A program made the translations under genes and the position numbers. From sequence record MW748999.1: a DNA stretch of 64,000 nucleotides. One strand, written 5' to 3'. The DNA comes from Escherichia phage vB_EcoM_Skers. Of this stretch, positions 4,118 to 61,781 are shown piece by piece. The notes under the pieces were generated by a model, which was not told where the DNA came from, did not search any database, and saw only the letters and a list, made by a program, of their open reading frames with translations. The first letter of the stretch is position 1. The number at the start of each line of letters is the position of its first letter.

Positions 4118-4174
4118 CCTTTTGTTTTCGATGGGGATATTATGATATATCCCCGATCCGGTGTCAACAGATTT

Positions 4175-13311: not shown

Positions 13312-13515
13312 TTATAGCTCAAATTTCATGAAAGTTCCTACACTTTCATTTTCATTCTCTCCGTTTTCATCTAAGCCAAATTTGTAGACACTACCATCTG
13401 GCGATGTGTAAGAGAATACACGAAAACGGCCTACCGAATCAAGTTCTGTAAATTCATATTCTTTTCCGGCTTCAAAAAGTGCATATGTGCTTTTAAGACA
13501 TTTCATCGTAATCAT
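13312..13515 (-). CDS. hypothetical small protein (61.x position)
   Basis: 67-aa ORF; ATG overlaps upstream stop (ATGA). Confidence 0.4.
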   Translation of the reverse strand: MITMKCLKSTYALFEAGKEYEFTELDSVGRFRVFSYTSPDGSVYKFGLDENGENENESVGTFMKFEL

Positions 13516-14929: not shown

Positions 14930-16342
14930 TTAGAAAGTCATGTTATTTGCTAGCTCGTCGAGTTTTTCTCGTTTCTCGGCTTGCTGTGCGCTTTGTGGTT
15001 TAACTTGTGCATTCTCCTGATCTGCGATCTGGTTTGGTACTTCATACCAACGCTGATTGCCTTTCTTCACACCAACGTTAAACCGTGAATAATAGTTCTT
15101 GTCACCGTAACGAGACTTGATCTGCTTCATGAGTTGGACGCCCATTTTAGCCAGGTCTTCGGTTTCGATAACACCCAACATAAAGTCGGCAGTAGCCGGA
15201 AGACCTGCTGATTCAGCGGTATCACTCATGTTAAGGTCGGAAGCATCCCAACCCGCGCGGGTAGTCTGTGCCGCAGTCCAACCAACAACATCCCACTTAA
15301 CAAAAAATCCTCGCAGTTCTTCCGCAATCGCCTTAACTAGTGTGTAACTATTTTCAGAGTATACACGCAAGCGAGACGATGCGCAAATCCCAAGATAGTC
15401 AACAATCACAACATCAGGTTTAAACTGTTTCTTGAGTCGCAATTCATTCATTAACGCCTCAAAGTGATTGGAGTTTGCGCCACCAGTCGGATACTGCTTG
15501 ATCATCAATTTTCCAACCGGACGATCTCCGATCTTCTTATTCTTAACACGCTTCATGCGTGCGGAATATTCCGCAAAAGAAACATTACCATTATCCAATT
15601 CATCTAATGTAATGTCAAGCAAGTTTGCGTCGATACGTTTTGCTACTACATGCTCTGCCATCTCCATTGAGATATACAATACATCATAACCACATTCCAT
15701 ATAATCCGCAGCAAGAGAACACAAGCCAAGCGATTTACCAACGTTTACACCAGCAAGCAACACATTTAGCGTTTTTCTTTCCGCCCCTCCTTTCGTGATT
15801 TTATTCAACATCGGCAGCTTAAACGGGATCTTATTCGCCTTAGTCTGATATAGCAAGAATCGTTTTTCAAAGTCATTAAACCAGTCATGACCTACATCAG
15901 AATCAAACGTAATGGATAGTGCTTCCTGCATGATCTCAGGAATAGCACCCTCACTCGGCAATTTCTTATTCTGTTTCTCTTTTGGTAGTTGTGCGTTCGC
16001 CTGAATCTCTAGCGCCCGTGACATTGCATTGTACATAGCACGGTCACGAATAAATTTTTCGGTTTCCTTCATTAACCAATCAAGGTCTTCCGGTGTATTC
16101 TCCAGCGAATCGAGAAGATTTTTAGCCCCTTCATATGTTGTCTGATTGCCTCTCTCCTTGTCTAAAGCAATCTGTAATGCAGTTGGCGTAGGAATATTGG
16201 AATATTCGTCTACGTGCTTTTTAATCAGCTTATAAATCAGTTTTTCTTCGTCTTCGGTGAAGTAGTCCGCTTTAAGGTGAGGCCATACATTCGTAAAGAA
16301 TGCGCCATTGTAAATCAACTGTGAAAAGATAGTTTTAATCAT
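14930..16342 (-). CDS. 41: replicative DNA helicase (DnaB-like)
   Basis: 470 aa; Walker A GVNVGKS; N-terminus resembles T4 gp41. Confidence 0.9.
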   Translation of the reverse strand: MIKTIFSQLIYNGAFFTNVWPHLKADYFTEDEEKLIYKLIKKHVDEYSNIPTPTALQIALDKERGNQTTYEGAKNLLDSLENTPEDLDWLMKETEKFIRDRAMYNAMSRALEIQANAQLPKEKQNKKLPSEGAIPEIMQEALSITFDSDVGHDWFNDFEKRFLLYQTKANKIPFKLPMLNKITKGGAERKTLNVLLAGVNVGKSLGLCSLAADYMECGYDVLYISMEMAEHVVAKRIDANLLDITLDELDNGNVSFAEYSARMKRVKNKKIGDRPVGKLMIKQYPTGGANSNHFEALMNELRLKKQFKPDVVIVDYLGICASSRLRVYSENSYTLVKAIAEELRGFFVKWDVVGWTAAQTTRAGWDASDLNMSDTAESAGLPATADFMLGVIETEDLAKMGVQLMKQIKSRYGDKNYYSRFNVGVKKGNQRWYEVPNQIADQENAQVKPQSAQQAEKREKLDELANNMTF

Positions 16343-31573: not shown

Positions 31574-31732
31574 TTACTTAATGATACTTACTTTACCAGA
31601 TCCGTGACAATGAGCACAACACCCATCACCACGCAATCCTGTTCCGTTACAGTGTTTACACTTCTTCAACGGTAAAGTCATTATAGCAAATAAAGCAATA
31701 ATGAACACCGAAACTAAATTCTCAATAATCAT
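31574..31732 (-). CDS. small membrane-anchored zinc-ribbon protein (52 aa)
   Basis: ORF MIIENLVSVFIIALFAIMTL...CKHCNGTG..CCAHCHGSG; not in track. Confidence 0.35.
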   Translation of the reverse strand: MIIENLVSVFIIALFAIMTLPLKKCKHCNGTGLRGDGCCAHCHGSGKVSIIK

Positions 31733-31991
31733 AAATCGCCCTCAGTTCTTTATAGCCTCCAATGTGCTCGTTGTCAATGAATATCTGGGGGTATACAAAC
31801 CGGAGGCTCTTTGAGTTCAGCCTCCCCGCCAGTTCTTCAATCATATCACGGTCGGGAATAATGTCAACCCCGACCTGCTTGAATACTGGTTTAAGTGTAT
31901 ACGGAATACCCAGATCATCCAGTAGCTTCATTGCACTAATACAACCATAACAATGATAAGCCTCTTTCGGTATACCGTATATCTCGATCAT
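31722..31991 (-). CDS. nrdH: glutaredoxin-like protein (NrdH-type redoxin)
   Basis: 89 aa; CYGC redox motif near N-terminus and C-terminal IGGY; position upstream of nrdG region. Confidence 0.6.
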   Translation of the reverse strand: MIEIYGIPKEAYHCYGCISAMKLLDDLGIPYTLKPVFKQVGVDIIPDRDMIEELAGRLNSKSLRFVYPQIFIDNEHIGGYKELRAIYDY

Positions 31992-32488
31992 TTCTCAGCC
32001 TTTAATCTTTCTAGTTCTTCTTCCAGTTCCTTGATCCGTTGGTCACGTTCAAAGTCACGCTGTATCTTAGTGGCGAATACTCGTTTAAACTGATTGTAAT
32101 CATCGATTTTAAACACTTCTTCTTCGCCATAGCGACGCACAGAAACTTCGTAGTTATTGAAGAATTGTTGCATCATTGCTTCGGATGATAGCTCTGCTGA
32201 TACCACTTTAAAATATTGATCTTCGGTAGGTGAAAACCAATTACAAGCATAAAGATAAACCTTTTCATTGTCTGGACACTGGTAAGCCTTACCATCGATT
32301 TCAATCACAGAAACATATTCAGGTATACTAGATGAATCAATAGCTAAGACTTTAAACGCACGGTCCCCGATAAACTCGGAGATCACACGATTCGCATCAC
32401 TGGTTGCAAATGCTTTACGCGCTTGTTCGTTTTTCCACTGATAGGTCATACCAACAACAAACATATTACCAACCTCGCTCTTTACCAA
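31988..32488 (-). CDS. repeat-domain/coiled-coil paralogue family member A1 (1 domain)
   Basis: GMTYQWKNEQARKAF...AFKVLAID...IEIDGKAYQ...YFKVV then coiled-coil tail; paralogous to 32466-34308 and 38123-40820. Confidence 0.55.
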   Translation of the reverse strand: MVKSEVGNMFVVGMTYQWKNEQARKAFATSDANRVISEFIGDRAFKVLAIDSSSIPEYVSVIEIDGKAYQCPDNEKVYLYACNWFSPTEDQYFKVVSAELSSEAMMQQFFNNYEVSVRRYGEEEVFKIDDYNQFKRVFATKIQRDFERDQRIKELEEELERLKAEK

Positions 32489-33290
32489 TCAAAAATTCAA
32501 CTTCACGACGTTTAATGTCTTCTTGAAGGTCTTTAATCTTCTGGCGATCTTGCATTATTTCATCCATCTTGTCAAGTGCCGCAATGAAATCATCGAAACG
32601 TTCAAAGGTTTTACCTTCATTTGCTTCGCCAAATTTAACCATTGTCAGGCCATAACGACTACTAAAAAGACGCTTCAACTGTCCAACGATCTTAGAATCA
32701 GTGGTTATAACTTCCAATTCTTCTACTTCTTGAAAGAATTTTCTATCAGAATCAATAAACCAGCTAGTTCCTTTATGGTCGCTATCTTCTGTTGCACTCA
32801 TTAGAGTATGGTCTTTACCATCAATTTCAATTACATTAACTTGCCCACATAGACTAACATTTTTAACAGTAAAAGGTCTATAATTTATTGCTCGTGCAAT
32901 AACATAATTAAGGTTAGATACGTTTTCAGCATAATGACAGAAGTCGGTCATAGCATTCGCATCTTTCCAAGTATAAGTTTTACCAACTTCCCATTTCTGG
33001 GGAACTTCTTCAACTTCACGAAAGAATTTTCGATCGAATGGACTAAAGAAATATGTTGCAGTCCAAATGTCTTTTCCTGTAGCAGTTTTCGCCGTATGAT
33101 AAACACCGTCTAGCTCTATTGCATTAATCCAACCGTTACCCTCGATCTCGATGATGGTAAATGGCTTGTCACCAATAGCTGCACTAATATCGCTGTTAAG
33201 TGGAGAAAGAACACCTTCTCCGTTAGTAATAAACTCAGTTTTAGCGTTTTCATCTTTCCAAGTGTAAGTTTTACCAATTTCCCATTTCAT
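32466..33290 (-). CDS. paralogue family member A2 (2 tandem domains + coiled-coil tail)
   Basis: Two internal copies beginning KWEIGKTYTWKDENA and KWEVGKTYTWKDANA, each ending RKFF.EVEE. Confidence 0.55.
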   Translation of the reverse strand: MKWEIGKTYTWKDENAKTEFITNGEGVLSPLNSDISAAIGDKPFTIIEIEGNGWINAIELDGVYHTAKTATGKDIWTATYFFSPFDRKFFREVEEVPQKWEVGKTYTWKDANAMTDFCHYAENVSNLNYVIARAINYRPFTVKNVSLCGQVNVIEIDGKDHTLMSATEDSDHKGTSWFIDSDRKFFQEVEELEVITTDSKIVGQLKRLFSSRYGLTMVKFGEANEGKTFERFDDFIAALDKMDEIMQDRQKIKDLQEDIKRREVEFLIGKERGW

Positions 33291-33302
33291 AATATATTCC
33301 CC

Positions 33303-33782
33303 TTAACCGATTTTATCAAGTTCGTTTAATGCTTTCTCTGCTTCCTGTATAGCTTGCACCCTTTCCGGCATTTTGTCAAGAAAATCTTTCAACTCTTCAA
33401 AACTGGAGATATGACGCAAGGCGTTAGCACCGATAGCTGCATGTGATTTGCATTCAAAGCGGATTTTATAATTATCCATAGCCAGCTTGAGTAGGTCCAT
33501 TAGTTTAGATTCTTCTGGAATACTAATTTCTTCAAATCTGCTACGGTCGTGATCCAGAAACCAACAATATAGACCTACATCGGTTGAACTCATATAAGTT
33601 CCATCATGAAGATATACAGATCGCACGTATCCTTTTTTCGCATCAACCGACGCAACTTTAAACGGTAATCGCAGATATTTCAAATAATCAACATCATACC
33701 ATTTAAAAAATTGGTTTGCATCTTTTACATCTTTCCATACATAGGTCTTACCAGCTTCCCATTTCATAATATCATCTCTCAT
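33303..33782 (-). CDS. paralogue family member A3
   Basis: KWEAGKTYVWKD...RSRFEEI then helical tail with FLDKMP motif. Confidence 0.55.
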   Translation of the reverse strand: MRDDIMKWEAGKTYVWKDVKDANQFFKWYDVDYLKYLRLPFKVASVDAKKGYVRSVYLHDGTYMSSTDVGLYCWFLDHDRSRFEEISIPEESKLMDLLKLAMDNYKIRFECKSHAAIGANALRHISSFEELKDFLDKMPERVQAIQEAEKALNELDKIG

Positions 33783-34308
33783 TTTTGATACGTGATTCTA
33801 ATTGGATCATACGGTCGCGCGTTTGTTTGTATTCTCGGATAGCACCGATCCGGCTAGGCATACCATCCAGTACGCTCTTAATACCTTCTAGGGTAGTAAT
33901 TTTGGCAATGCTATTATGTAACCCCATCTTATCGATCAACTGAATGTCGTAGGCTTCCATAAGCAGACCCAGGCGTTCTAAAGTTAGGTCTTCTTCTTTT
34001 TCTTCTGAATCTGGAATCTTAGGTTCAATAGTAACTTCGGTAAAGAAACGACGCTCACCCGACCAAAACCACACACCAGAACAACCAATAGGGGATTCTT
34101 TTAACGTCATAGAGTCGAAATCACTACCAATAATAGTAATTTCTCTAACATCACCATCATCGTCAAGGTCTTCTACCCTAAACGGGCGACCAGCCAACAA
34201 GTCAACAATACATCTGTTAATAAACGACGAAAATTTAGTCAGTTCGGCTTTCGACGCTTCGCATTCGATCTTGTAAGTTTTACCAACTTCCCATTCCATA
34301 ATAATCAC
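33772..34308 (-). CDS. paralogue family member A4
   Basis: EWEVGKTYKIE...RRFFTEV then helical tail VLDGMP... Confidence 0.55.
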   Translation of the reverse strand: MIIMEWEVGKTYKIECEASKAELTKFSSFINRCIVDLLAGRPFRVEDLDDDGDVREITIIGSDFDSMTLKESPIGCSGVWFWSGERRFFTEVTIEPKIPDSEEKEEDLTLERLGLLMEAYDIQLIDKMGLHNSIAKITTLEGIKSVLDGMPSRIGAIREYKQTRDRMIQLESRIKNER

Positions 34309-34819: not shown

Positions 34820-35030
34820 TTACCCCGAACTCGTTTACAATCTGCGCTTTATAGTAACCACCGCGAGATGCTAATAGATAAGCTGGGCTTAGGTATTCGT
34901 ATTCACGGATTTCTACTTGTGCGTTTTCAGTTTCCCAAATCAGTAAAGTCCACATATTTGATTCTCCTGTAAAGTTGTATCTCGTCTTGATGAATATAGT
35001 ATAGGGGATCTCGCGATCCCCGTCAAGCAT
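34803..35030 (-). CDS. hypothetical small protein
   Basis: 75-aa minus-strand ORF. Confidence 0.3.
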   Translation of the reverse strand: MLDGDREIPYTIFIKTRYNFTGESNMWTLLIWETENAQVEIREYEYLSPAYLLASRGGYYKAQIVNEFGVIEYEF

Positions 35031-35564
35031 TTATTTTAAATTTTTTCGAATGTATTCAGACCATTCCTTCCCTGTCATTTCGGACCCATTCTGGAAACTG
35101 AAATATTCATACGGCATCGAGTCAAGATAAAACAGGATCATACATCGCGCCATATAATACCAATCACGATTAAAGTAAACTACGTTATCGCCAGTACCAT
35201 CAGCACCTTTATCATAACCATCGCGGGTACGGGCGACCCATTGAATGGTATCATTTTTCTCACGGATAGTAACAGGTTCCCAATATCCAGCACATCCAGC
35301 ATGACCACACGAACAAGTAAGGAAATATTGACCTTTTGCTTTGTTGTCATCCCATTCACGATGAATTGGTTCGATTTCGTGAAACAGTGCTAAGCAATCA
35401 TGATTATGCAACACTGGCTCACCATCAATCAATGCATGGAATGTATACAAACGACCCGTAGACAAATAGCTATCCTCACGCTCAACCAGTTCAATAGCAA
35501 TCTTTTTAGCTTGTTCTTTGTGTCGTTGTGCTTTACGTTTACGGTTTAATGATTTCATAGTCAC
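35031..35564 (-). CDS. hypothetical protein (Cys/His-rich)
   Basis: 177-aa ORF between nrdG and nrdD. Confidence 0.4.
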   Translation of the reverse strand: MTMKSLNRKRKAQRHKEQAKKIAIELVEREDSYLSTGRLYTFHALIDGEPVLHNHDCLALFHEIEPIHREWDDNKAKGQYFLTCSCGHAGCAGYWEPVTIREKNDTIQWVARTRDGYDKGADGTGDNVVYFNRDWYYMARCMILFYLDSMPYEYFSFQNGSEMTGKEWSEYIRKNLK

Positions 35565-35575
35565 CTCACATTATT

Positions 35576-36115
35576 TCAAAGATCGCGATATTGTACATTA
35601 TGAAAATGAGAACTTGCATTACCAATATTGTAGATAACAAATTCTTCATCCGGCGCTTGCGCTACAAATTGAGTATGAGCAACCGCTACGACTTTAAAAA
35701 TACGATCCGTGATCTTGTGTTTAATTTCGACTCCTACTTCCATAGGAACATATTCATGTGTTTCTGTTTCAGTCGCAAAACAGCCATCTTCTTCATAAGC
35801 ACGAACAAATCGATCGCAATCAGTACGCTTAACAAATTCAAGAGTATACAATTCTCGTGAATTGTCGGTATAGACCAATACAGAATTATTATGATAGCGA
35901 ATCACATACAGGTTATTATCATCGTCAATTACGCAAAAGCTACGGATTCCTTCGCCTTGACTCCAGCAGATATTAACCACCGTTCCTCTAATAAAAAAAC
36001 TTTCCTTTAAATTAAAACTAGTCAATGTGCTAGCGTGCATTTTAACAACAACACCATCGCCAATTTCCAGTTTACGAAGTTTAACTTCTTTGCTCAGTAC
36101 ACAAAACATCATCAT
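35576..36115 (-). CDS. hypothetical protein
   Basis: 179-aa ORF downstream of promoter cassette at 36144-36171. Confidence 0.4.
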   Translation of the reverse strand: MMMFCVLSKEVKLRKLEIGDGVVVKMHASTLTSFNLKESFFIRGTVVNICWSQGEGIRSFCVIDDDNNLYVIRYHNNSVLVYTDNSRELYTLEFVKRTDCDRFVRAYEEDGCFATETETHEYVPMEVGVEIKHKITDRIFKVVAVAHTQFVAQAPDEEFVIYNIGNASSHFHNVQYRDL

Positions 36116-36215: not shown

Positions 36216-38078
36216 TTACATGTGCTTAACGCGGTTTACCATCTCGGAGTGTTTCCCGTGGTTAAATGGACGCAGATCAACAGATCCAAGATATCCACTA
36301 ACGCGACGGATAACATTCATCTTTTCCAGATTATCATTTCCGCAATCAGGACAAACAAAACCAAACTCGGTCGCTCTCATTTCCTTAGTAGACCCGCATA
36401 CATGACATACATCAGAAGGAGTATTAACACCGAAGTAGTGCAATTTATCCATTGCATAGTCTACTACAGTTTCAAGACCTTTCAGGTTGTTTTTCATGTC
36501 TGGGAACTCAACATAAGAGATCATGCCACCGGACGCCAGCCAGTGATAATCTTTCTCAAAGTCGATTTTCTCAAATGGAGTGACTTTCCGGTCTACGTCA
36601 AGGTGGAATGAGTTGGTGTACCAGTCTTTATCGGTAGCACCCTTAACAATACCAAATTGCTCTCGGTCCAGTCGATTAAATCGATAGCAAAGGCTCTCGG
36701 CTGGCGTACCGTAAAGACTAAACCCAAGTCCGGTTTCGTCCTTCCATTTTTCAGTATAATGACGCAAGATCTTAAGAATATGTTTACCGTATCGCTGCGC
36801 ATCTTCCGAATCAAACGGATGAACACCAAACAGGACGCTCAATACCTCATGTAAACCAATATATCCAAGAGAGATACTAGCGCGACCATCTTTCAACACT
36901 TCCAAAATTTCATCGTTTTGATGAATACGGAAAAATGCACCTTCTGTATACAGCACCGGAGCAACATTGGCTTTAGCCCCTTTTAAAGCGTCTACGCGAC
37001 TCATGAGCGCATCAAAGCAAATAGGCATACGATTAGCTAGCTCTTGTTCGAATAGCTCAATTCTGCGCATTACAGACGCTTTACCAGCACGACGCGCGGC
37101 AATAAGGGCAATACGCGGAAGATTCAGAGTCACAACACCTAAGTTATTACGTCCGTCTAATACTTCCTCGCCTTTCTCATTATGCCACACACCCAGGAAG
37201 CTACGACAACCCATCGGGCTAACCGGAACACTAGATCCGGTGATGCTACGGTTATTCTTCGCAGAGATATAATCAGGGTAAAGACGCTTACTAGAACATT
37301 CCAATGCAAGTTGCTTAATGTCGTAGTTCGGATCTTCCGGTTTAAGGTTTAATCCTTCTTCTAAGAACATCACCAGCTTAGGAAACACCGGAGTGATACC
37401 ATCTTTACCTAAACCTTTAGTTCGAACGTTCAGGATCGCTTTCTGAATCAGTTTTTCTTCCCAGCTAGTCCCCATACCAAAGGTTAAAGTCACAAAAGGT
37501 GTTTGACCGTTGGTAGAGAACAAAGTGTTGATCTCATATTCCAACGCCTGATATCCGTCTAACGTTTCTTTTTCTGTCTTCTCTTGTGCATAGAGAGTAT
37601 CAGCTTTGATTCCGTAGGTTTCGGCATCAGCAAGGTGTTTATGATATGTTTTCTCAACGTATGGCGCTAAAACCTGATCGATGTTTGCAATTGTGGTCCC
37701 GCCATATTGATGACTTGCCACCTGTGCGATAATTTGAGCGGTTACAGCACAAGCAACGCCGATCGATTTCGGGCTTTCGATTTGTGCGCTACCCAATTTA
37801 AAACCATTCTCTAACATGTCTTTGAGATTAACAAGACAGCAGTTAGTAAACGGCATAGCGGGTGCATAATCCATATCATGATAATGAATGTCACCGTCTA
37901 CATGCGCTTTATAGATGTGCTCAGGTAACACGGTTTTAGCAATCTGTTTAGACACAGCACCAGAAATCAGATCTCGACGTGTCGGGAATGTTCGCGCGTC
38001 TTTGTTCGCGTTCTCTTTGCTTACTTCGTTTTCTTTACCCGTTGCGATCTCTGTAATGTCTTTGATTAGTTTTTCCAT
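36216..38078 (-). CDS. nrdD: anaerobic ribonucleoside-triphosphate reductase (class III), uninterrupted
   Basis: 620 aa; C-terminal glycyl-radical motif RVSGYLGS and zinc ribbon CHVCGS..CPDCGN. Confidence 0.9.
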   Translation of the reverse strand: MEKLIKDITEIATGKENEVSKENANKDARTFPTRRDLISGAVSKQIAKTVLPEHIYKAHVDGDIHYHDMDYAPAMPFTNCCLVNLKDMLENGFKLGSAQIESPKSIGVACAVTAQIIAQVASHQYGGTTIANIDQVLAPYVEKTYHKHLADAETYGIKADTLYAQEKTEKETLDGYQALEYEINTLFSTNGQTPFVTLTFGMGTSWEEKLIQKAILNVRTKGLGKDGITPVFPKLVMFLEEGLNLKPEDPNYDIKQLALECSSKRLYPDYISAKNNRSITGSSVPVSPMGCRSFLGVWHNEKGEEVLDGRNNLGVVTLNLPRIALIAARRAGKASVMRRIELFEQELANRMPICFDALMSRVDALKGAKANVAPVLYTEGAFFRIHQNDEILEVLKDGRASISLGYIGLHEVLSVLFGVHPFDSEDAQRYGKHILKILRHYTEKWKDETGLGFSLYGTPAESLCYRFNRLDREQFGIVKGATDKDWYTNSFHLDVDRKVTPFEKIDFEKDYHWLASGGMISYVEFPDMKNNLKGLETVVDYAMDKLHYFGVNTPSDVCHVCGSTKEMRATEFGFVCPDCGNDNLEKMNVIRRVSGYLGSVDLRPFNHGKHSEMVNRVKHM

Positions 38079-38122
38079 TGTATCACCTATGAAAAAGCGG
38101 GATTTCTCCCGCTCGTTGATAG

Positions 38123-38617
38123 TTATTTTACCAGTTCTGCTAATTCTTTTTCTTTAGCTTCCAGTTCAGCTTTAAGCTGTTTAATCTCTTGTCGCTTCTT
38201 ATTAGCGGCTTCCTGCTTACTATTGCGGATAATCTGATCTAGATACAACTCCCAATCCTGAATATTTTTGATAATGTAGCCGTCAACATTAATTGGTCGG
38301 AGATTCAGTACAGCTTCCAGTTTAGTTGCAAAAACTTTAATTGCTGGTGTGAAGTATTCATACTCGTTATCTTCAAACCAATAACCTAGACTTGCATTAT
38401 CAATACGAAGACGAAGTTTAAGATCAAGGTCTTTATCGTCGGTGTAAAGATCTTTCACCTGACCCAGCGAACTAACAACAACTTTAAAACGAATTTTATC
38501 TACACCGCCAAAAACATCTTCAAGAATATCAGCAATTGAGCTATTAGCGCAAGATTGGTCGCTGAATGCGTCAAGGTTTTCTTTAGTTACAGTATACCAA
38601 ACATCTTGTACCCACAT
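38123..38617 (-). CDS. paralogue family member B1 (divergent domain + coiled-coil tail)
   Basis: 164 aa; WYTVTKENLDAF...IRFKVVV...; C-terminal EIKQLKAELEAKEKELAELVK coiled coil. Confidence 0.45.
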   Translation of the reverse strand: MWVQDVWYTVTKENLDAFSDQSCANSSIADILEDVFGGVDKIRFKVVVSSLGQVKDLYTDDKDLDLKLRLRIDNASLGYWFEDNEYEYFTPAIKVFATKLEAVLNLRPINVDGYIIKNIQDWELYLDQIIRNSKQEAANKKRQEIKQLKAELEAKEKELAELVK

Positions 38618-38647
38618 AATATAATCCTCTCGTTGTTAAGTGGGAGT

Positions 38648-38675
38648 ATTATAGCATACTCCCTTCGCATGTCAA
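38648..38675 (-). promoter_or_regulatory. promoter-hairpin cassette (TTGACA-16-TATAAT inside GGGAGTAT/ATACTCCC palindrome)
   Basis: -35 overlaps the stop codon of the upstream family gene. Confidence 0.45.
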
Positions 38676-39850
38676 GCACTAACTTTTTTCTTTACTGCTT
38701 TCACCTTCTGGCGAATTGCTCGAATCTCTTCGATCTCTTTTTCAGTCTCTTTAACAATTTCTTTGCGATTCTGAATATCTGTATCGAGATTATCATCAAG
38801 TTTAGGCAGCATGTCAATCAAGAACTTTTTAAAGTCTTTCAGGTTTCGAATAACAGCACCTTCGCCCATTACCGCAACACCCACACCATCCGGCAGATCA
38901 CCAAACAGCTTAACCAGTTCAGACAGATGATCATGATCTTCTAGTGCTTCTTCCGGTTCAGATGGCAGTTCAACAAAGTTATAACGTTCATCATTGCTGA
39001 TCAAGTGATACCAGCAAAGCCCGAAAGATTTCGGTGTATATTCTACACCATCAATTTCAACCGCGTCAACACTTCCATAATCATCTACTTTAGTTACCTT
39101 AAATCCTTGTCCCAGCTTTTGAACAATTTCAACAACATGACTTGATACAGTTTCAGCGGTAAACCAATATGGCAGATTATGCTGATTTGGCTTGTAGCGT
39201 TCACCGACTTTAAATCTCTGACCAGCAGCTTGCATAGCATGAAATTGTTGTTTCGTGATTTCCGCGAAGTATTCAAATTCGCTACAATCAAACACACAAG
39301 CCCATTGATCACAAAAACGATCTGCCTTAACAGTTTCACCTTTCGCGGTGATCATGGTAGCTGATCCGTGAGATTCTTCTTCAACTAAAAAGCCATATTC
39401 GACAAAATCAACAAGTTTCATGGCTTCTTTGTGCTCTGGATCATGCTCTCCCCAGAATCGCTTAAATTCTTGCAAACCTTCCGGGGTAAACGAATAGCAC
39501 TTACCTTTTTCAAAGTAAGTAGGCATTGCATCCTCTTTCTTGTTCATCGCTTCGTATGCCTCTTTTGAGATGCGTTTAAAGTATTTACGCTCATTGTTCA
39601 TAATCATAGTAGCCCAATAATCCACAATATCATTAGCGGAATAAACTACATCTCCAGCTTCAATAGTAATAACATGACCGTGGTCATCTTTTTCTAATAC
39701 TTTAAAGCCCTTTTCTACGATTTCAGCAACCCGAATATGACCACGGCGCGAAGCATCGGTCAGAATAATTGAATAGCGAGAAAAGTCTAGAAACTCATCT
39801 TTACCGCCTTCACGGAATGCATAGTAATGACCTTCAAAGAATTTAGCCAT
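38672..39850 (-). CDS. paralogue family member B2 (3 tandem domains + coiled-coil tail)
   Basis: 392 aa; three copies starting GHYYAFREG, GKCYSFTPEG, GERYKPNQ, each with GFKV and YF.x(I/L) elements; ends in coiled coil. Confidence 0.55.
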   Translation of the reverse strand: MAKFFEGHYYAFREGGKDEFLDFSRYSIILTDASRRGHIRVAEIVEKGFKVLEKDDHGHVITIEAGDVVYSANDIVDYWATMIMNNERKYFKRISKEAYEAMNKKEDAMPTYFEKGKCYSFTPEGLQEFKRFWGEHDPEHKEAMKLVDFVEYGFLVEEESHGSATMITAKGETVKADRFCDQWACVFDCSEFEYFAEITKQQFHAMQAAGQRFKVGERYKPNQHNLPYWFTAETVSSHVVEIVQKLGQGFKVTKVDDYGSVDAVEIDGVEYTPKSFGLCWYHLISNDERYNFVELPSEPEEALEDHDHLSELVKLFGDLPDGVGVAVMGEGAVIRNLKDFKKFLIDMLPKLDDNLDTDIQNRKEIVKETEKEIEEIRAIRQKVKAVKKKVSA

Positions 39851-39881
39851 AATATAATCCTCTCGTTGTTTAGATGGGAGT

Positions 39882-39910
39882 ATCTTACTACTCCCGTTTC
39901 ATCATGTCAA
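39882..39910 (-). promoter_or_regulatory. promoter-hairpin cassette (TTGACA-17-TAAGAT, GGGAGTA/TACTCCC palindrome)
   Basis: Same architecture as 38648-38675. Confidence 0.4.
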
Positions 39911-40491
39911 GCGTTAAATGACTTTTGGATCTCTTTCAGTTCAGCTACTTTATCGGCGCTATATTTTGCTTGATGTTCCATGCGCTTAAGCTCACCTTTG
40001 ATATAGGTTTCTAGCTTAGGTTTATTCTCAATCAGAAAATCTTTCAAGTCATCGGCATTTTTAAAGTATAGCTGATTATCAAAGCTAAAATCTTCCAGCG
40101 TCAATGATACCAAAGAAGACTTCGCAAACAAGTTAATCAGATCTTCCAGAGATTCTTCTTTCTTAACTGGTTTCATTTCTTCAAACTGCTTTTTAGTGAT
40201 GCGTTTAAAGTATTTGCGCTCGCTTGCATCAATCATGATTGACGCACCCTCATAATCATGAGTTTCTACCAAATACACTTTACCCATAACATTAACCGTA
40301 AGAACTTTAAAGCCCCTGTGAAGCACACCATACAGGAACTTGTTATGTTGTGGATAGCGTTTAACAAATTCCTCTGCGGACTCAGCATTACGGAAAGTGT
40401 AATAACGACCTCGTTCAAAAACAGCATCATTTGAAGACTTAGCCGGATACAATTTATACGTTTTCTGTACCATAGTATAATCCTCTATCAT
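39907..40491 (-). CDS. paralogue family member B3
   Basis: 194 aa; GRYYTFRNAESAEEF...GFKVLTV...ERKYFKRITK; tail LKDFLIENKP + coiled coil. Confidence 0.55.
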   Translation of the reverse strand: MIEDYTMVQKTYKLYPAKSSNDAVFERGRYYTFRNAESAEEFVKRYPQHNKFLYGVLHRGFKVLTVNVMGKVYLVETHDYEGASIMIDASERKYFKRITKKQFEEMKPVKKEESLEDLINLFAKSSLVSLTLEDFSFDNQLYFKNADDLKDFLIENKPKLETYIKGELKRMEHQAKYSADKVAELKEIQKSFNA

Positions 40492-40760
40492 TTCACTAAT
40501 TGAACAGCACGAAACAGAATGCGGTCACACGGAAGCAGCATAAATTCCCAACGCGGATCAAAGTCTTTAGCGGTGTATGTTTTCCCGTCAACCGAGATTT
40601 CACTTACATAACCAATGGGTGACACTTTAAGAACAGTAAATCCATTCTTGATGACTTCGTAGGTATCTTTCAAACCTTCGTAGTCATCCTCTAAGAAGTC
40701 TTTACGTGCTTGCTCAGATTTAAAAACATAGGCAACACCGGATTTAAACATCTTACGCAT
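40488..40760 (-). CDS. paralogue family member B4 (single domain, no tail); start at MRKMFKSG
   Basis: GVAYVFKSEQARKDF...GFTVLKV...ISVDGKTYT...RILFRAV; AGGAGAA SD; track ORF extends falsely to 40820. Confidence 0.5.
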   Translation of the reverse strand: MRKMFKSGVAYVFKSEQARKDFLEDDYEGLKDTYEVIKNGFTVLKVSPIGYVSEISVDGKTYTAKDFDPRWEFMLLPCDRILFRAVQLVK

Positions 40761-40791
40761 TGTTGATTCTCCTTCTTGATTAGATGGGAGT

Positions 40792-40820
40792 ATTTTACTA
40801 CTCCCATTTCTTATTGTCAA
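40792..40820 (-). promoter_or_regulatory. promoter-hairpin cassette (TTGACA-17-TAAAAT, GGGAGTA/TACTCCC palindrome)
   Basis: Located between gene 49 stop and B4 start. Confidence 0.4.
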
Positions 40821-40823
40821 CTA

Positions 40824-41297
40824 CTATCTTAATCTTTGTATAAATTGTTTCTTATACTTCTTCGTGATCTCTTCTCTTGTATCAGCGTCGCAGTAATCGA
40901 AACCTTCTGCGTCCATAATAGCAACCATCTCCGCGCGTGTCAAGCGTGAAAATCGTTTTACTTTATCAACAGCATATTGAGGATGTAAATGGTTGTTGGT
41001 GTAATCTCCTTTGATGTAATTAACATAGTTTGTAGCCCAAACAACGAAATCAGCACCTAAAGCACCAACACCAAACCGCTTAAAGTCTCCGGTCAACGAT
41101 CCTTCTAGGCGGTTGCAACACGAATGAAGCAATCCCCTTACGCGGCCTTGCCCTTTCCCATCTAGATCGTGGTCATGGTCAAGATGGTTTTTGCTCATAT
41201 CCTCAAAAAGTGGCAATTGACAAAGGGGGCAAATGCCCCCCTGTTTTTCGAATAGTTCTTGTTTGTACTCTTTAGCACTCTTAGCAGTCAGTAACAT
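40824..41297 (-). CDS. 49: endonuclease VII (Holliday-junction resolvase); start at MLLTAK
   Basis: CPLCQ...NHLDHDHDLDGKGQGRVRGLLHSCCN matches the T4 gp49 catalytic/zinc motif. Confidence 0.8.
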   Translation of the reverse strand: MLLTAKSAKEYKQELFEKQGGICPLCQLPLFEDMSKNHLDHDHDLDGKGQGRVRGLLHSCCNRLEGSLTGDFKRFGVGALGADFVVWATNYVNYIKGDYTNNHLHPQYAVDKVKRFSRLTRAEMVAIMDAEGFDYCDADTREEITKKYKKQFIQRLR

Positions 41298-41321: not shown

Positions 41322-41615
41322 TTAACCATTAATCTTGTTTTTGACTACAAAGGATCGGAACTCATCAAAGCCACCAATATAATCACCATTATAGAAAATC
41401 TGCGGCATGGTGGCAATAACTTCTACCCCTGCGCGATCCTGAATGTCGACAATTATAGAATCAATCTTTACAGGGCGACCGTTTTCGTCTACACCATCAT
41501 TAACCGGAATGTATATATAAGGGATCTTACGCGATTCACAAAGGCGCTTTGCATTCTGGCAATACTTACAGTTGTAACCTTCAAAACCAAAAATTTCTAC
41601 CATGTTATACCTCAA
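41322..41615 (-). CDS. nrdC: thioredoxin/glutaredoxin-like redoxin
   Basis: CKYC redox motif and TMPQIF..G.YIGGFDEF as in T4 NrdC; start may be MVEIFG. Confidence 0.6.
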   Translation of the reverse strand: MRYNMVEIFGFEGYNCKYCQNAKRLCESRKIPYIYIPVNDGVDENGRPVKIDSIIVDIQDRAGVEVIATMPQIFYNGDYIGGFDEFRSFVVKNKING

Positions 41616-57017: not shown

Positions 57018-57322
57018 ATGCCAGGCCAGTTAGGATCGCAATTATACTCAACATCCCACAAATAAAGCGGTTTAGATGTATCAGCCAAGTTTTTAAAATC
57101 TTCTACCCACATTTCAAGGCTATAGGATGGATAAACTAGGCTATCATATCCGCCGTAACGTTGGCCTACTGGTCGGTCAGTAAAAACTACCTCAAGATCC
57201 GGTAATTCTTTTTCAAGGATAACCGCCAGCGCATAAATCAGACGGTCTTCCTTGTTACGCTGCCGAAGGACCGTTGTCAGTTGGTTTTTCTGGTTCACTA
57301 GCAAGCACCTCCACATTTTCAC
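56984..57322 (-). CDS. hypothetical protein (start uncertain, possibly GTG at ~57298)
   Basis: 112-aa ORF; its 3' end lies in the duplicated segment. Confidence 0.35.
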   Translation of the reverse strand: MKMWRCLLVNQKNQLTTVLRQRNKEDRLIYALAVILEKELPDLEVVFTDRPVGQRYGGYDSLVYPSYSLEMWVEDFKNLADTSKPLYLWDVEYNCDPNWPGINVYASMTLKV

Positions 57323-57575
57323 AGAATGAAATTTTCACAGACACAATTTTACCATAAGTGAAGAATGAATATACATTATCGAGATATTCAACGTCACCTA
57401 CAATCACATCAAACTGCGGATCAGCAACCGCCGCAACATATTCTACCAGTTCATCAAGAGAATGCAACTTAATTTCATCAATTCGGCTGTATTTGGTTGC
57501 ATCTTTAATTTTAAAACCACGTTCTTTCAGTTTGTCAATCAGAATTTCACGCGGAGTTTCAAACAGTTTGCTCAT
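57255..57575 (-). CDS. hypothetical acidic protein
   Basis: 106-aa minus-strand ORF. Confidence 0.35.
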   Translation of the reverse strand: MSKLFETPREILIDKLKERGFKIKDATKYSRIDEIKLHSLDELVEYVAAVADPQFDVIVGDVEYLDNVYSFFTYGKIVSVKISFCENVEVLASEPEKPTDNGPSAA

Positions 57576-57596
57576 AATATAATCCTCACATTAAAT

Positions 57597-61335: not shown

Positions 61336-61710
61336 TTAAGAAAATTTTACTTCGTCTACAATGTCTTTCATGACATTGATTTCCATTCCGGTCAGAACAC
61401 GTTGGAACATGTGCTGCACATACGCTTTCAGGTATTCATTTGATGGCTTGCTATCGAAAGTCTTTTTAGTGTAGTAGTCATCACCGAAAGCTACTGTAAT
61501 TACATTTTCGTCGTCGTTCCAAGCGATATAAGCAAATTTGCCGTTATCCCAGAAGCGAGCACTAATTGCTACTTTTGTTGAATCGAATCCTACTTCGCTG
61601 TGAGATTCAAGAACTACTTGCGTGCCAGTTTCTTTATGAATGTAGTAGCGGGATACTAAGTCAAAGTTACGTGTGTAGTGACATTCGAATTTATCTTTAA
61701 ACATCATCAT
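61336..61710 (-). CDS. hypothetical protein (start at MMMFKDK)
   Basis: AGGAGAATCAAA SD before ATG at 61710; track ORF over-extended into the promoter. Confidence 0.4.
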   Translation of the reverse strand: MMMFKDKFECHYTRNFDLVSRYYIHKETGTQVVLESHSEVGFDSTKVAISARFWDNGKFAYIAWNDDENVITVAFGDDYYTKKTFDSKPSNEYLKAYVQHMFQRVLTGMEINVMKDIVDEVKFS

Positions 61711-61747
61711 TTTGATTCTCCTAAGTGTGTTTCGTTTCGATATGTGC

Positions 61748-61776
61748 ATTATGCTATAGTCGTTTATGGTTGTCAA
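61748..61776 (-). promoter_or_regulatory. promoter cassette (TTGACA-17-CATAAT)
   Basis: Same cassette as 36144-36171 and 48303-48331. Confidence 0.45.
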
Positions 61777-61781
61777 CACCT

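Follow-up and report, generated by a model that had tools for sequence, protein, structure and literature searches.

The stretch of Escherichia phage vB_EcoM_Skers analyzed here (MW748999.1; 64,000 nucleotides, hereafter the window) comes from a Krischvirus, an RB49-like T4-type coliphage, and its positions 38000-41000 match 58 complete Krischvirus genomes, including RB49, phi1, JSE, ECD7, and Sf20, at 94-97% identity. Against Sf20, ECD7, and RB49, the identity of the window is 95-97%. All genes of the area are carried on the minus strand, and four of them, B1 to B4, form an array of paralogues (array B) between nrdD (36216-38078) and gene 49 (40824-41297). B1 (38123-38617, 164 amino acids), the counterpart of RB49p057, is a divergent member in which a single barrel is joined to a K/E-rich helix of heptad-like pattern. 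B2 (38672-39850, 392 amino acids) holds three barrels and a tail and corresponds to RB49p058, annotated "frd.2 / goF mRNA metabolism modulator." B3 (39907-40473, 188 amino acids; RB49p059) combines one barrel with a small alpha/beta unit and a long helix, and B4 (40488-40760, 90 amino acids; RB49p060) is a tail-less barrel. In RefSeq, p058 (originally named frd.2) and p059 are called "goF mRNA metabolism modulator," and p057 and p060 are "hypothetical." The true start of B4 is the ATG at 40760, 8 nucleotides past AAGGAG, in agreement with the RB49 annotation; the TTG at 40820 given by a mechanical list of open reading frames (ORFs) was rejected because it is part of a -35 hexamer. B3 begins 14 nucleotides past the B4 stop.

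A sequence-only reading of this DNA had proposed that array B and a second array across the nrdG-nrdD module belong to one paralogue family, and the profile searches bear this out with one gene more. Array A (31988-34299, minus strand) consists of four tightly packed genes, A1 (31988-32464), A2 (32466-33290, two domains), A3 (33303-33767), and A4 (33772-34299). The ninth member, C1 (14244-14879, minus strand, 211 amino acids), is a barrel with a K/E-rich helix directly downstream of the gene 41 helicase. Ten domain copies were cut, and separate array A and array B profiles were compared with 644 sequences, comprising the 640 ORFs from the six frames of the window and four proteins of T4. The array A profile detected B2 (2e-12), B4 (7e-10), B3 (5e-5), and B1 (1.5e-4), as well as C1 (5e-7), and the array B profile detected A2 (1e-14), A1 (3e-6), A3 (7e-4), and A4 (1e-3), while unrelated ORFs began at E values of about 0.1-0.4. 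The similarity between the arrays is significant in both directions.

The wider family became visible only when 1.84 billion representative proteins were searched exhaustively with a profile, as word-indexed homologue searches returned close Krischvirus orthologues only. This search gave 102 matches at E<=1e-3, 10 of which were long repeat proteins in which no single domain passed alone; these were discarded as spurious. B1 and the two relatives of it that BLAST detects were kept out of an outside profile of 97 domain sequences, which matched all nine window genes (3e-11 to 6e-48), with the next window ORF at 0.04. B1 was the weakest-scoring member (3e-11); C1 scored 4e-15 and B4 scored 9.5e-20. 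The same profile recovered three T4 proteins, GoF (2e-19), Frd.2 (2e-13), and MotB.1 (5e-8). Additionally, the eight array genes fall into a web of mutually matching PHROGs families, namely 8944, 13003, and 2980 (all named goF) together with 5347, 622, 3710, and 16115. B4 matched 16115, B2 matched 8944, and B1 matched 3710 (2.6e-5), which is also matched by A1, A2, A4, and B2. On this profile evidence, the nine genes are members of the GoF/Frd.2/MotB.1 family, a poorly understood group kept across T4-like phages. The sequence-only reading had asked whether these genes might prove to be a widely annotated T4-core family; the family is indeed a named one, with RefSeq naming two of the four array B genes, but it is neither core nor essential.

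Other databases added little. Pfam gave nothing above threshold for the array B genes, and its subthreshold matches to RecT (7.8e-4; 19.5 bits against a cutoff of 24), LYR, and assorted coiled-coil families were dismissed as chance. The NCBIfam and PADLOC models showed no meaningful match to the family proteins, and a PDB sequence search found no solved relative, its best match being 4qxz at an E value of 0.0044. Some weak candidates for further membership were not significant either: the ORFs at 57258-57590 (E 0.015-0.3), 13312-13515 (about 0.1), and 61339-61779 (0.04-0.15), and T4 pin (0.07-0.13).

Each family protein is predicted to contain one to three N-terminal SH3/LSm-like beta-barrels of about 90 residues. 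The sequence-only reading had assigned three tandem domain copies to B2, and each copy is matched independently by the outside profile (3e-16, 5e-15, and 8e-17). The barrels lie at about 39533-39850, 39227-39532, and 38936-39226, and the tail (38672-38935) ends in a 55-residue helix. The AlphaFold2 model of B2 (mean predicted local distance difference test score [pLDDT] 75.6, predicted template modeling score 0.40) repeats the same order of strands and helices three times and continues with a helix (306-317), two short strands, and a second helix (337-391). In the model of B3, which has a mean pLDDT of 78.5 and values around 90 in the barrel, strand 1 is followed by two helices, four further strands, the small alpha/beta unit, and a long helix (140-187). 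The predicted fold is a bent five-stranded antiparallel barrel, with FeoA and IdeR-type SH3 domains as its closest solved neighbors. A Foldseek search of viral models (BFVD) returned 43 matches at E<=1e-3, nearly all from T4-like phages, including one named GoF and one from Escherichia phage phAPEC8; the hosts of the matched phages span Aeromonas, Acinetobacter, Citrobacter, Serratia, Pectobacterium, Cronobacter, Erwinia, Edwardsiella, and Enterobacter. Tandem barrels are uncommon among the approximately 92 genuine family clusters, with two barrels in nine clusters and three in two. The latter are the B2 orthologues, all at least 82% identical, and an unrelated metagenomic protein (P0068).

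Every window member except B4 carries a tail of the same layout, a small alpha/beta unit followed by a long charged helix. A crude heptad score places the tails of B1, B2, and B3 above 97-99% of shuffles (97.7% for B1), and the long charged C-terminal helix probably dimerizes. Such a heptad-like helix, found in eight of the nine Krischvirus members, is not present in the T4 proteins, and the tail profile misses them. The barrels are mostly acidic, being net negative in 87.5% of 96 representatives with a median charge of -5. B3 is the only member with a clearly basic domain (isoelectric point 9.1), and B4 is near neutral (+1).

These landmarks agree with the Tevenvirinae family of "LSm-like fold" to which T4 GoF (ComC-alpha), Frd.2, and MotB.1 have been assigned (Kim et al. 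2025, PMC12152347). Both share an N-terminal five-stranded barrel of about 90 residues with the pattern Y..F..FKV..G..YF.EV, both have FeoA and IdeR-SH3 domains as structural neighbors, and both consist of early, acidic, small proteins. An alternative is that the proteins are true LSm/Hfq-type RNA chaperones, which would assemble into rings and have direct RNA binding as their native role. In its favor are the five-stranded barrel and the listing of Hfq among the structural relatives (PMC12152347), the stabilization of an mRNA by GoF(D25Y), and the basic domain of B3 with K or R at both positions equivalent to the GoF mutations. However, neither the Sm1/Sm2 motifs of Pfam LSM or Hfq nor a closest structural similarity to Sm/Hfq rings was found, and we regard this alternative as unlikely.

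In array B, the genes are accompanied by three compact promoter-hairpin cassettes, all on the minus strand. The first lies between gene 49 and B4 (40784-40820), with -35 TTGACA at 40815-40820, -10 TAAAAT at 40792-40797, and a 9-bp stem (ATGGGAGTA/TACTCCCAT) enclosing the -10; its predicted transcription start is near 40785, and it is conserved in RB49. The second, between B3 and B2 (39876-39910), has its -35 at 39905-39910, its -10 (TAAGAT) at 39882-39887, a 7-bp stem at 39876-39895, and a predicted start near 39875. The third, between B2 and B1 (38642-38675), has its -35 at 38670-38675, its -10 (TATAAT) at 38648-38653, an 8-bp stem at 38642-38663, and a predicted start near 38641. They match 11/12, 10/12, and 12/12 consensus positions, respectively (the third also has a TG), with spacers of 17, 17, and 16 nucleotides, and the combined promoter pattern is expected 0 times in shuffled sequence. 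Perfect stems of 7-9 bp, GGGAGTA(T)/(A)TACTCCC, hold the -10 in the loop, and the cassettes fold at -13.8 to -14.9 kcal/mol (z-scores, -2.9 to -3.6). All are intergenic; the stop codon of the upstream gene lies in AT-rich sequence, and the 3' end carries a Shine-Dalgarno sequence followed by a start codon. The second and third share an identical 5' leader.

Strand reading and scans confirmed exactly the coordinates that the sequence-only reading had given for the cassettes (38648-38675, 39882-39910, and 40792-40820). Its statement that the -35 overlaps the preceding stop codon holds for the second and third, where the stops are the TGA of B3 and of B2, but not for the first, in which the gene 49 stop lies 3 nucleotides upstream. 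The idea that each gene has its own cassette had to be abandoned, as three cassettes serve four genes, B3 having none, and a window scan detected no cassette inside array A. Modular and independent expression is a plausible description of array B, whose layout includes separate and apparently strong sigma-70-type promoters. Array A probably shares a transcript with nrdG from a cassette at 34998-35026, which precedes a 75-amino-acid ORF, nrdG, array A, and nrdH.

By their anatomy, the three cassettes are promoter-early stem-loops (PeSLs), instances of a class described in 2010 for RB49 and phi1, members of the same genus, at about 51-52 per genome (Arbiol et al. 2010, PMC2839356; Comeau et al. 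2014, PMC4122927). The AT-rich upstream stop, the TTGACA-N16/17-TATAAT promoter, the G-run/C-run stem overlapping the -10, the Shine-Dalgarno sequence, and the start codon are all shared, and among the published elements the commonest stem positions are between the two boxes and over the -10. Nothing essential differs from the published elements; specific to this locus are the identical leader of the second and third cassettes and the common stem. The window contains twelve PeSL-like cassettes of these two commonest classes, with the stem either around the -10 or inside the spacer; the nine outside array B have -35 starts at 4167, 27599, 35026, 44720, 46795, 52961, 58808, 59516, and 61329 (minus strand). 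Differences among the stems are all compensated (GGGAGTA:TACTCCC, GGGGGTA:TACCCCC, and GGGTGTAT:ATACACCC). Both promoter and terminator activity have been shown for other PeSLs (193/192, 206/205, and 211/210; PMC2839356).

An intrinsic terminator of ordinary form is located between B1 and nrdD (38092-38113, minus strand), about 14 nucleotides before the nrdD ATG. It consists of GCGGGA-gaaa-TCCCGC followed by TTTTT and folds at -17 kcal/mol (z, -4.0). No sigma-70 promoter was found between this terminator and nrdD, which may be transcribed by read-through or from another promoter class. Two hairpin-less sigma-70-like matches (11/12) were observed inside coding sequences on the minus strand, at 38789-38817 in the B2 tail and at 40915-40943 in gene 49; they may be chance occurrences or internal promoters.

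Taken together, these elements suggest the following course of expression. At infection, the three near-consensus sigma-70 early promoters, evident as sequence, would fire and produce the units B4-B3, B2, and B1, the last of which would terminate just ahead of nrdD. Since a start about 7 nucleotides past the -10 falls beyond the 3' arm of the stem, the transcript of each cassette would itself lack the hairpin. The hairpin would form only in read-through RNA arriving from upstream, where it would be expected to act as an attenuator or as a barrier at the 3' end, as in the published PeSL design.

Comparison with related phages indicates how the locus changes. All 58 Krischvirus records matched by a 9.9-kb query keep the region, 57 of them at a coverage of at least 80%. 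At least one record, phage KFS-EC, lacks three family genes (A4, B3, and B4). Its gene 49/B2 junction is a single chimeric cassette, with the left part derived from the first array B PeSL and the right part from the second, and with B4 and B3 gone. This junction agrees exactly with the published PeSL excision model, in which one chimeric PeSL takes the place of the PeSL-flanked module of a relative. On the other side, the nrdG/A3 junction of KFS-EC follows the nrdG/A4 sequence through the shared ATGGAATGGGAAG and then continues as A3, with A4 gone. Changes also occur within genes. In AV108 and E26, A2 is a single-domain protein of 177-178 amino acids, a metagenomic A2 orthologue (P0009) has its crossover inside KWE.GKTYTWKD, a motif common to both A2 domains, and a further sequence (P0060) is a chimera of the A4 N terminus and the A2 C terminus. 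Compared with RB49p059, B3 is near identical over residues 1-115, differs in a block at about 116-165, and is then identical again, so its C-terminal part (39907-40140) holds a mosaic segment within the tail module. The comparison shows three kinds of repeat acting as substrates for homologous recombination that adds or removes genes and domains: the PeSL cassettes, the 5' ends that the paralogues have kept alike, and the domains repeated in tandem.

The chimeric cassette of KFS-EC, with its crossover inside the PeSL, also bears on the possibility that the hairpins matter as DNA, that is, as cruciform-prone inverted repeats at promoters whose main role would be that of hot spots for recombination, transcription being little affected. 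The three cassettes of array B have a stem sequence in common that the rest of the window lacks (0 occurrences expected by chance), which suits this possibility, as do the published PeSL mini-circles and the lack of a U-tract after the hairpins (followed by ATCTAA, ATCTAA, and ACTTAA). Against it stand the compensated stem changes, which fit selection for pairing in either RNA or DNA, and a PeSL stem whose termination of transcription, when assayed, equaled that of rrnB T1 in strength (PMC2839356). As a mainly DNA-level explanation we find it rather unlikely, although the RNA and DNA roles of the hairpins are not exclusive.

The sequence-only reading had further described the gene set as actively diversifying. 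Gene and domain content do change among relatives, as set out above, but positive selection was not observed. Nonsynonymous-to-synonymous substitution ratios (dN/dS; Nei-Gojobori, against RB49 and UPWr_E1) were 0.19-0.20 for B1, 0.11-0.21 for B2, 0.32 for B3, 0.04-0.13 for B4, and 0.09-0.41 for array A, compared with 0.01-0.06 for nrdD. Values between 0.04 and 0.41 denote purifying selection, with no sign of an arms race. Against UPWr_E1, the array A proteins are 69-77% identical, and their dS of 0.43-0.90 is 4-8 times that of nrdD (0.11). On these comparisons, the variation is best described as recombination, by indels and allele replacement, under purifying selection. Two other ORFs near nrdG and nrdD also vary: the one at 35031-35564 (minus strand, between the two genes) is 50% identical to its KFS-EC counterpart, with a dS of 1.2 and neighbors at 98-99%, and looks like a replaced allele, and the one at 35576-36115 is 74% identical to its counterpart in UPWr_E1.

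The same data can be used to judge whether the arrays are an anti-defense or decoy arsenal diversifying in an arms race with host immunity, roles that had been raised as speculation. Early genes in a hyperplastic region, a copy number that varies among close relatives, and the much faster evolution of array A and B3 than of the flanking nrd genes would all be expected of such an arsenal. Nevertheless, dN/dS stays below 0.42 for every member, the region is retained in all matching Krischvirus records, and the high dS is better accounted for by allele exchange than by accelerated protein evolution. The PADLOC and NCBIfam models provided no link, and no known anti-defense homologue appeared in the fold searches. 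With no PADLOC hits to support them, we consider such roles quite improbable.

The number and arrangement of the genes set Krischvirus apart from T4. Nine genes with 12 barrels are present in the Krischvirus phage, compared with three genes and three barrels in T4, a family about three times larger. The outside profile found no further member in the remaining 104 kb of RB49 (best E value, 0.19) and only the three known members in the 139 kb of T4 that were scanned, which lie outside the 78-108 kb late block. Moreover, the T4 genes are dispersed and single-domain, whereas eight of the nine Krischvirus genes stand in two arrays, one having two barrels and one three, and none of the nine occupies the position of goF, frd, or motB in T4. 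The T4 genome has no arrays around these nrd genes, since its nrdD lies directly next to gene 49 and its nrdG is succeeded by 55.8 and nrdH, and a two-barrel relative in Karamvirus is located at the goF/cef locus. The bracketing of nrdG-nrdD is therefore specific to Krischvirus. T4-type hyperplastic tandem arrays, attributed to unequal crossing-over, are likewise head-to-tail, with conserved 5' ends and indels exactly at repeats. Unlike in those arrays, a single domain is multiplied here both between and within genes, and the crossovers fall in repeats of three different classes.

The bracketing could in principle be explained if the barrels, FeoA-like in fold, served the anaerobic ribonucleotide reductase by modulating the ferrous-iron supply or the activity of NrdG/NrdD. 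The resemblance to FeoA, DtxR/IdeR SH3-like, Tudor, and KOW barrels is limited to the fold, with no sequence or Pfam relationship; membership in FeoA (PF04023) was not found by Pfam sequence comparison. Compared with the FeoA and DtxR/IdeR barrels, two helices are inserted after strand 1 and there are no metal ligands. A link to iron and nrdDG was considered and judged unlikely, and we give it very little credence.

Our preferred explanation, which we hold to be highly probable as a whole, is that array B is an early hyperplastic segment in which four GoF/Frd.2/MotB.1 paralogues are driven by PeSLs and remodeled by recombination. The mostly acidic barrels would have as their target a factor, from host or phage, that takes part in terminating transcription or in turning over mRNA, and tandem barrels combined with dimerization would make the proteins multivalent. 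Copies with an aromatic residue and Lys/Arg at the positions of the GoF mutations, as well as the basic B3, may bind RNA directly. For the role itself, multivalent binding aimed at a host termination or mRNA-decay factor, with native RNA binding possible in a few copies, our confidence is low. Some leads come from T4: GoF(D25Y) raises the stability of gene 41 mRNA, the mutants plate normally, and a genome-wide CRISPRi-ART screen, in which knockdown of frd.2 lowered fitness, gave the score "Fit" to no other gene of unknown function (PMC11879866).

Several observations weigh against this explanation or parts of it. The acidic barrels argue against general RNA binding, and the reporter assay showed no effect of GoF or MotB.1 in their wild-type form. 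The array A-tail and B-tail profiles fail to detect each other or the T4 C-terminal domains; therefore, only a shared architecture, not a common origin, is claimed for the tails. Having no U-tract, the hairpins of the three cassettes differ from canonical intrinsic terminators, and the start sites and the hairpin role at array B are predictions. Finally, the column equivalent to GoF D25 borders a variable insertion, so the alignment there may be one residue off.

The D25 column is relevant since the D25Y and G84-type changes in T4 GoF are rho-suppressing gain-of-function mutations. Among the 12 window barrels, five have F, Y, or W at the D25 column and five have K or R at the G84 column. Both residue types occur together in the second domain of A2 (Y, K), in A4 (F, R), and in the first domain of B2 (F, K), and B3 has R and K at the two equivalent positions. 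From these residues it might be proposed that the arrays are a natural allelic series of GoF-type proteins, in which such copies natively stabilize phage mRNAs or counteract Rho or RNase E, with multivalency provided by the tandem barrels and the dimerizing helix. We regard this proposal as decidedly doubtful; if true, it would give the wild-type family, including the fitness-relevant frd.2 of T4, a testable function.

It is important to consider that the building blocks of this locus are already known, the PeSLs having been described in 2010 and the GoF family in 2025. The lineage expansion, the tandem-domain architecture, and the three recombination footprints appear to be undescribed and are useful but unsurprising additions. 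The family is conserved across T4-like phages, and a genus with nine copies offers material for finding what the barrel binds, including single-, double-, and triple-barrel versions and copies that natively carry gain-of-function residues. KFS-EC, a natural isolate, serves as a ready-made deletion mutant for A4, B3, and B4. Furthermore, the locus is a compact worked example of three routes of homologous recombination, with remodeling at the level of cassettes, genes, and domains.

Some features of the surroundings complete the description. C1 is placed between the gene 41 helicase (14930-16342) and the primase, upstream of the latter, a curious position because gene 41 mRNA is the one affected by GoF(D25Y) in T4; the family is not represented at the equivalent place in T4, where 61.2 gives no profile match. 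In phage JSE, nrdD is split by a homing endonuclease according to its annotation, an insertion absent from the window. The whole block is bordered by two glutaredoxin/thioredoxin-like genes, nrdH (31722-31991) and nrdC (41322-41615), both on the minus strand, which gives it a roughly symmetric order: nrdH, array A, nrdG, three ORFs, nrdD, array B, gene 49, and nrdC.

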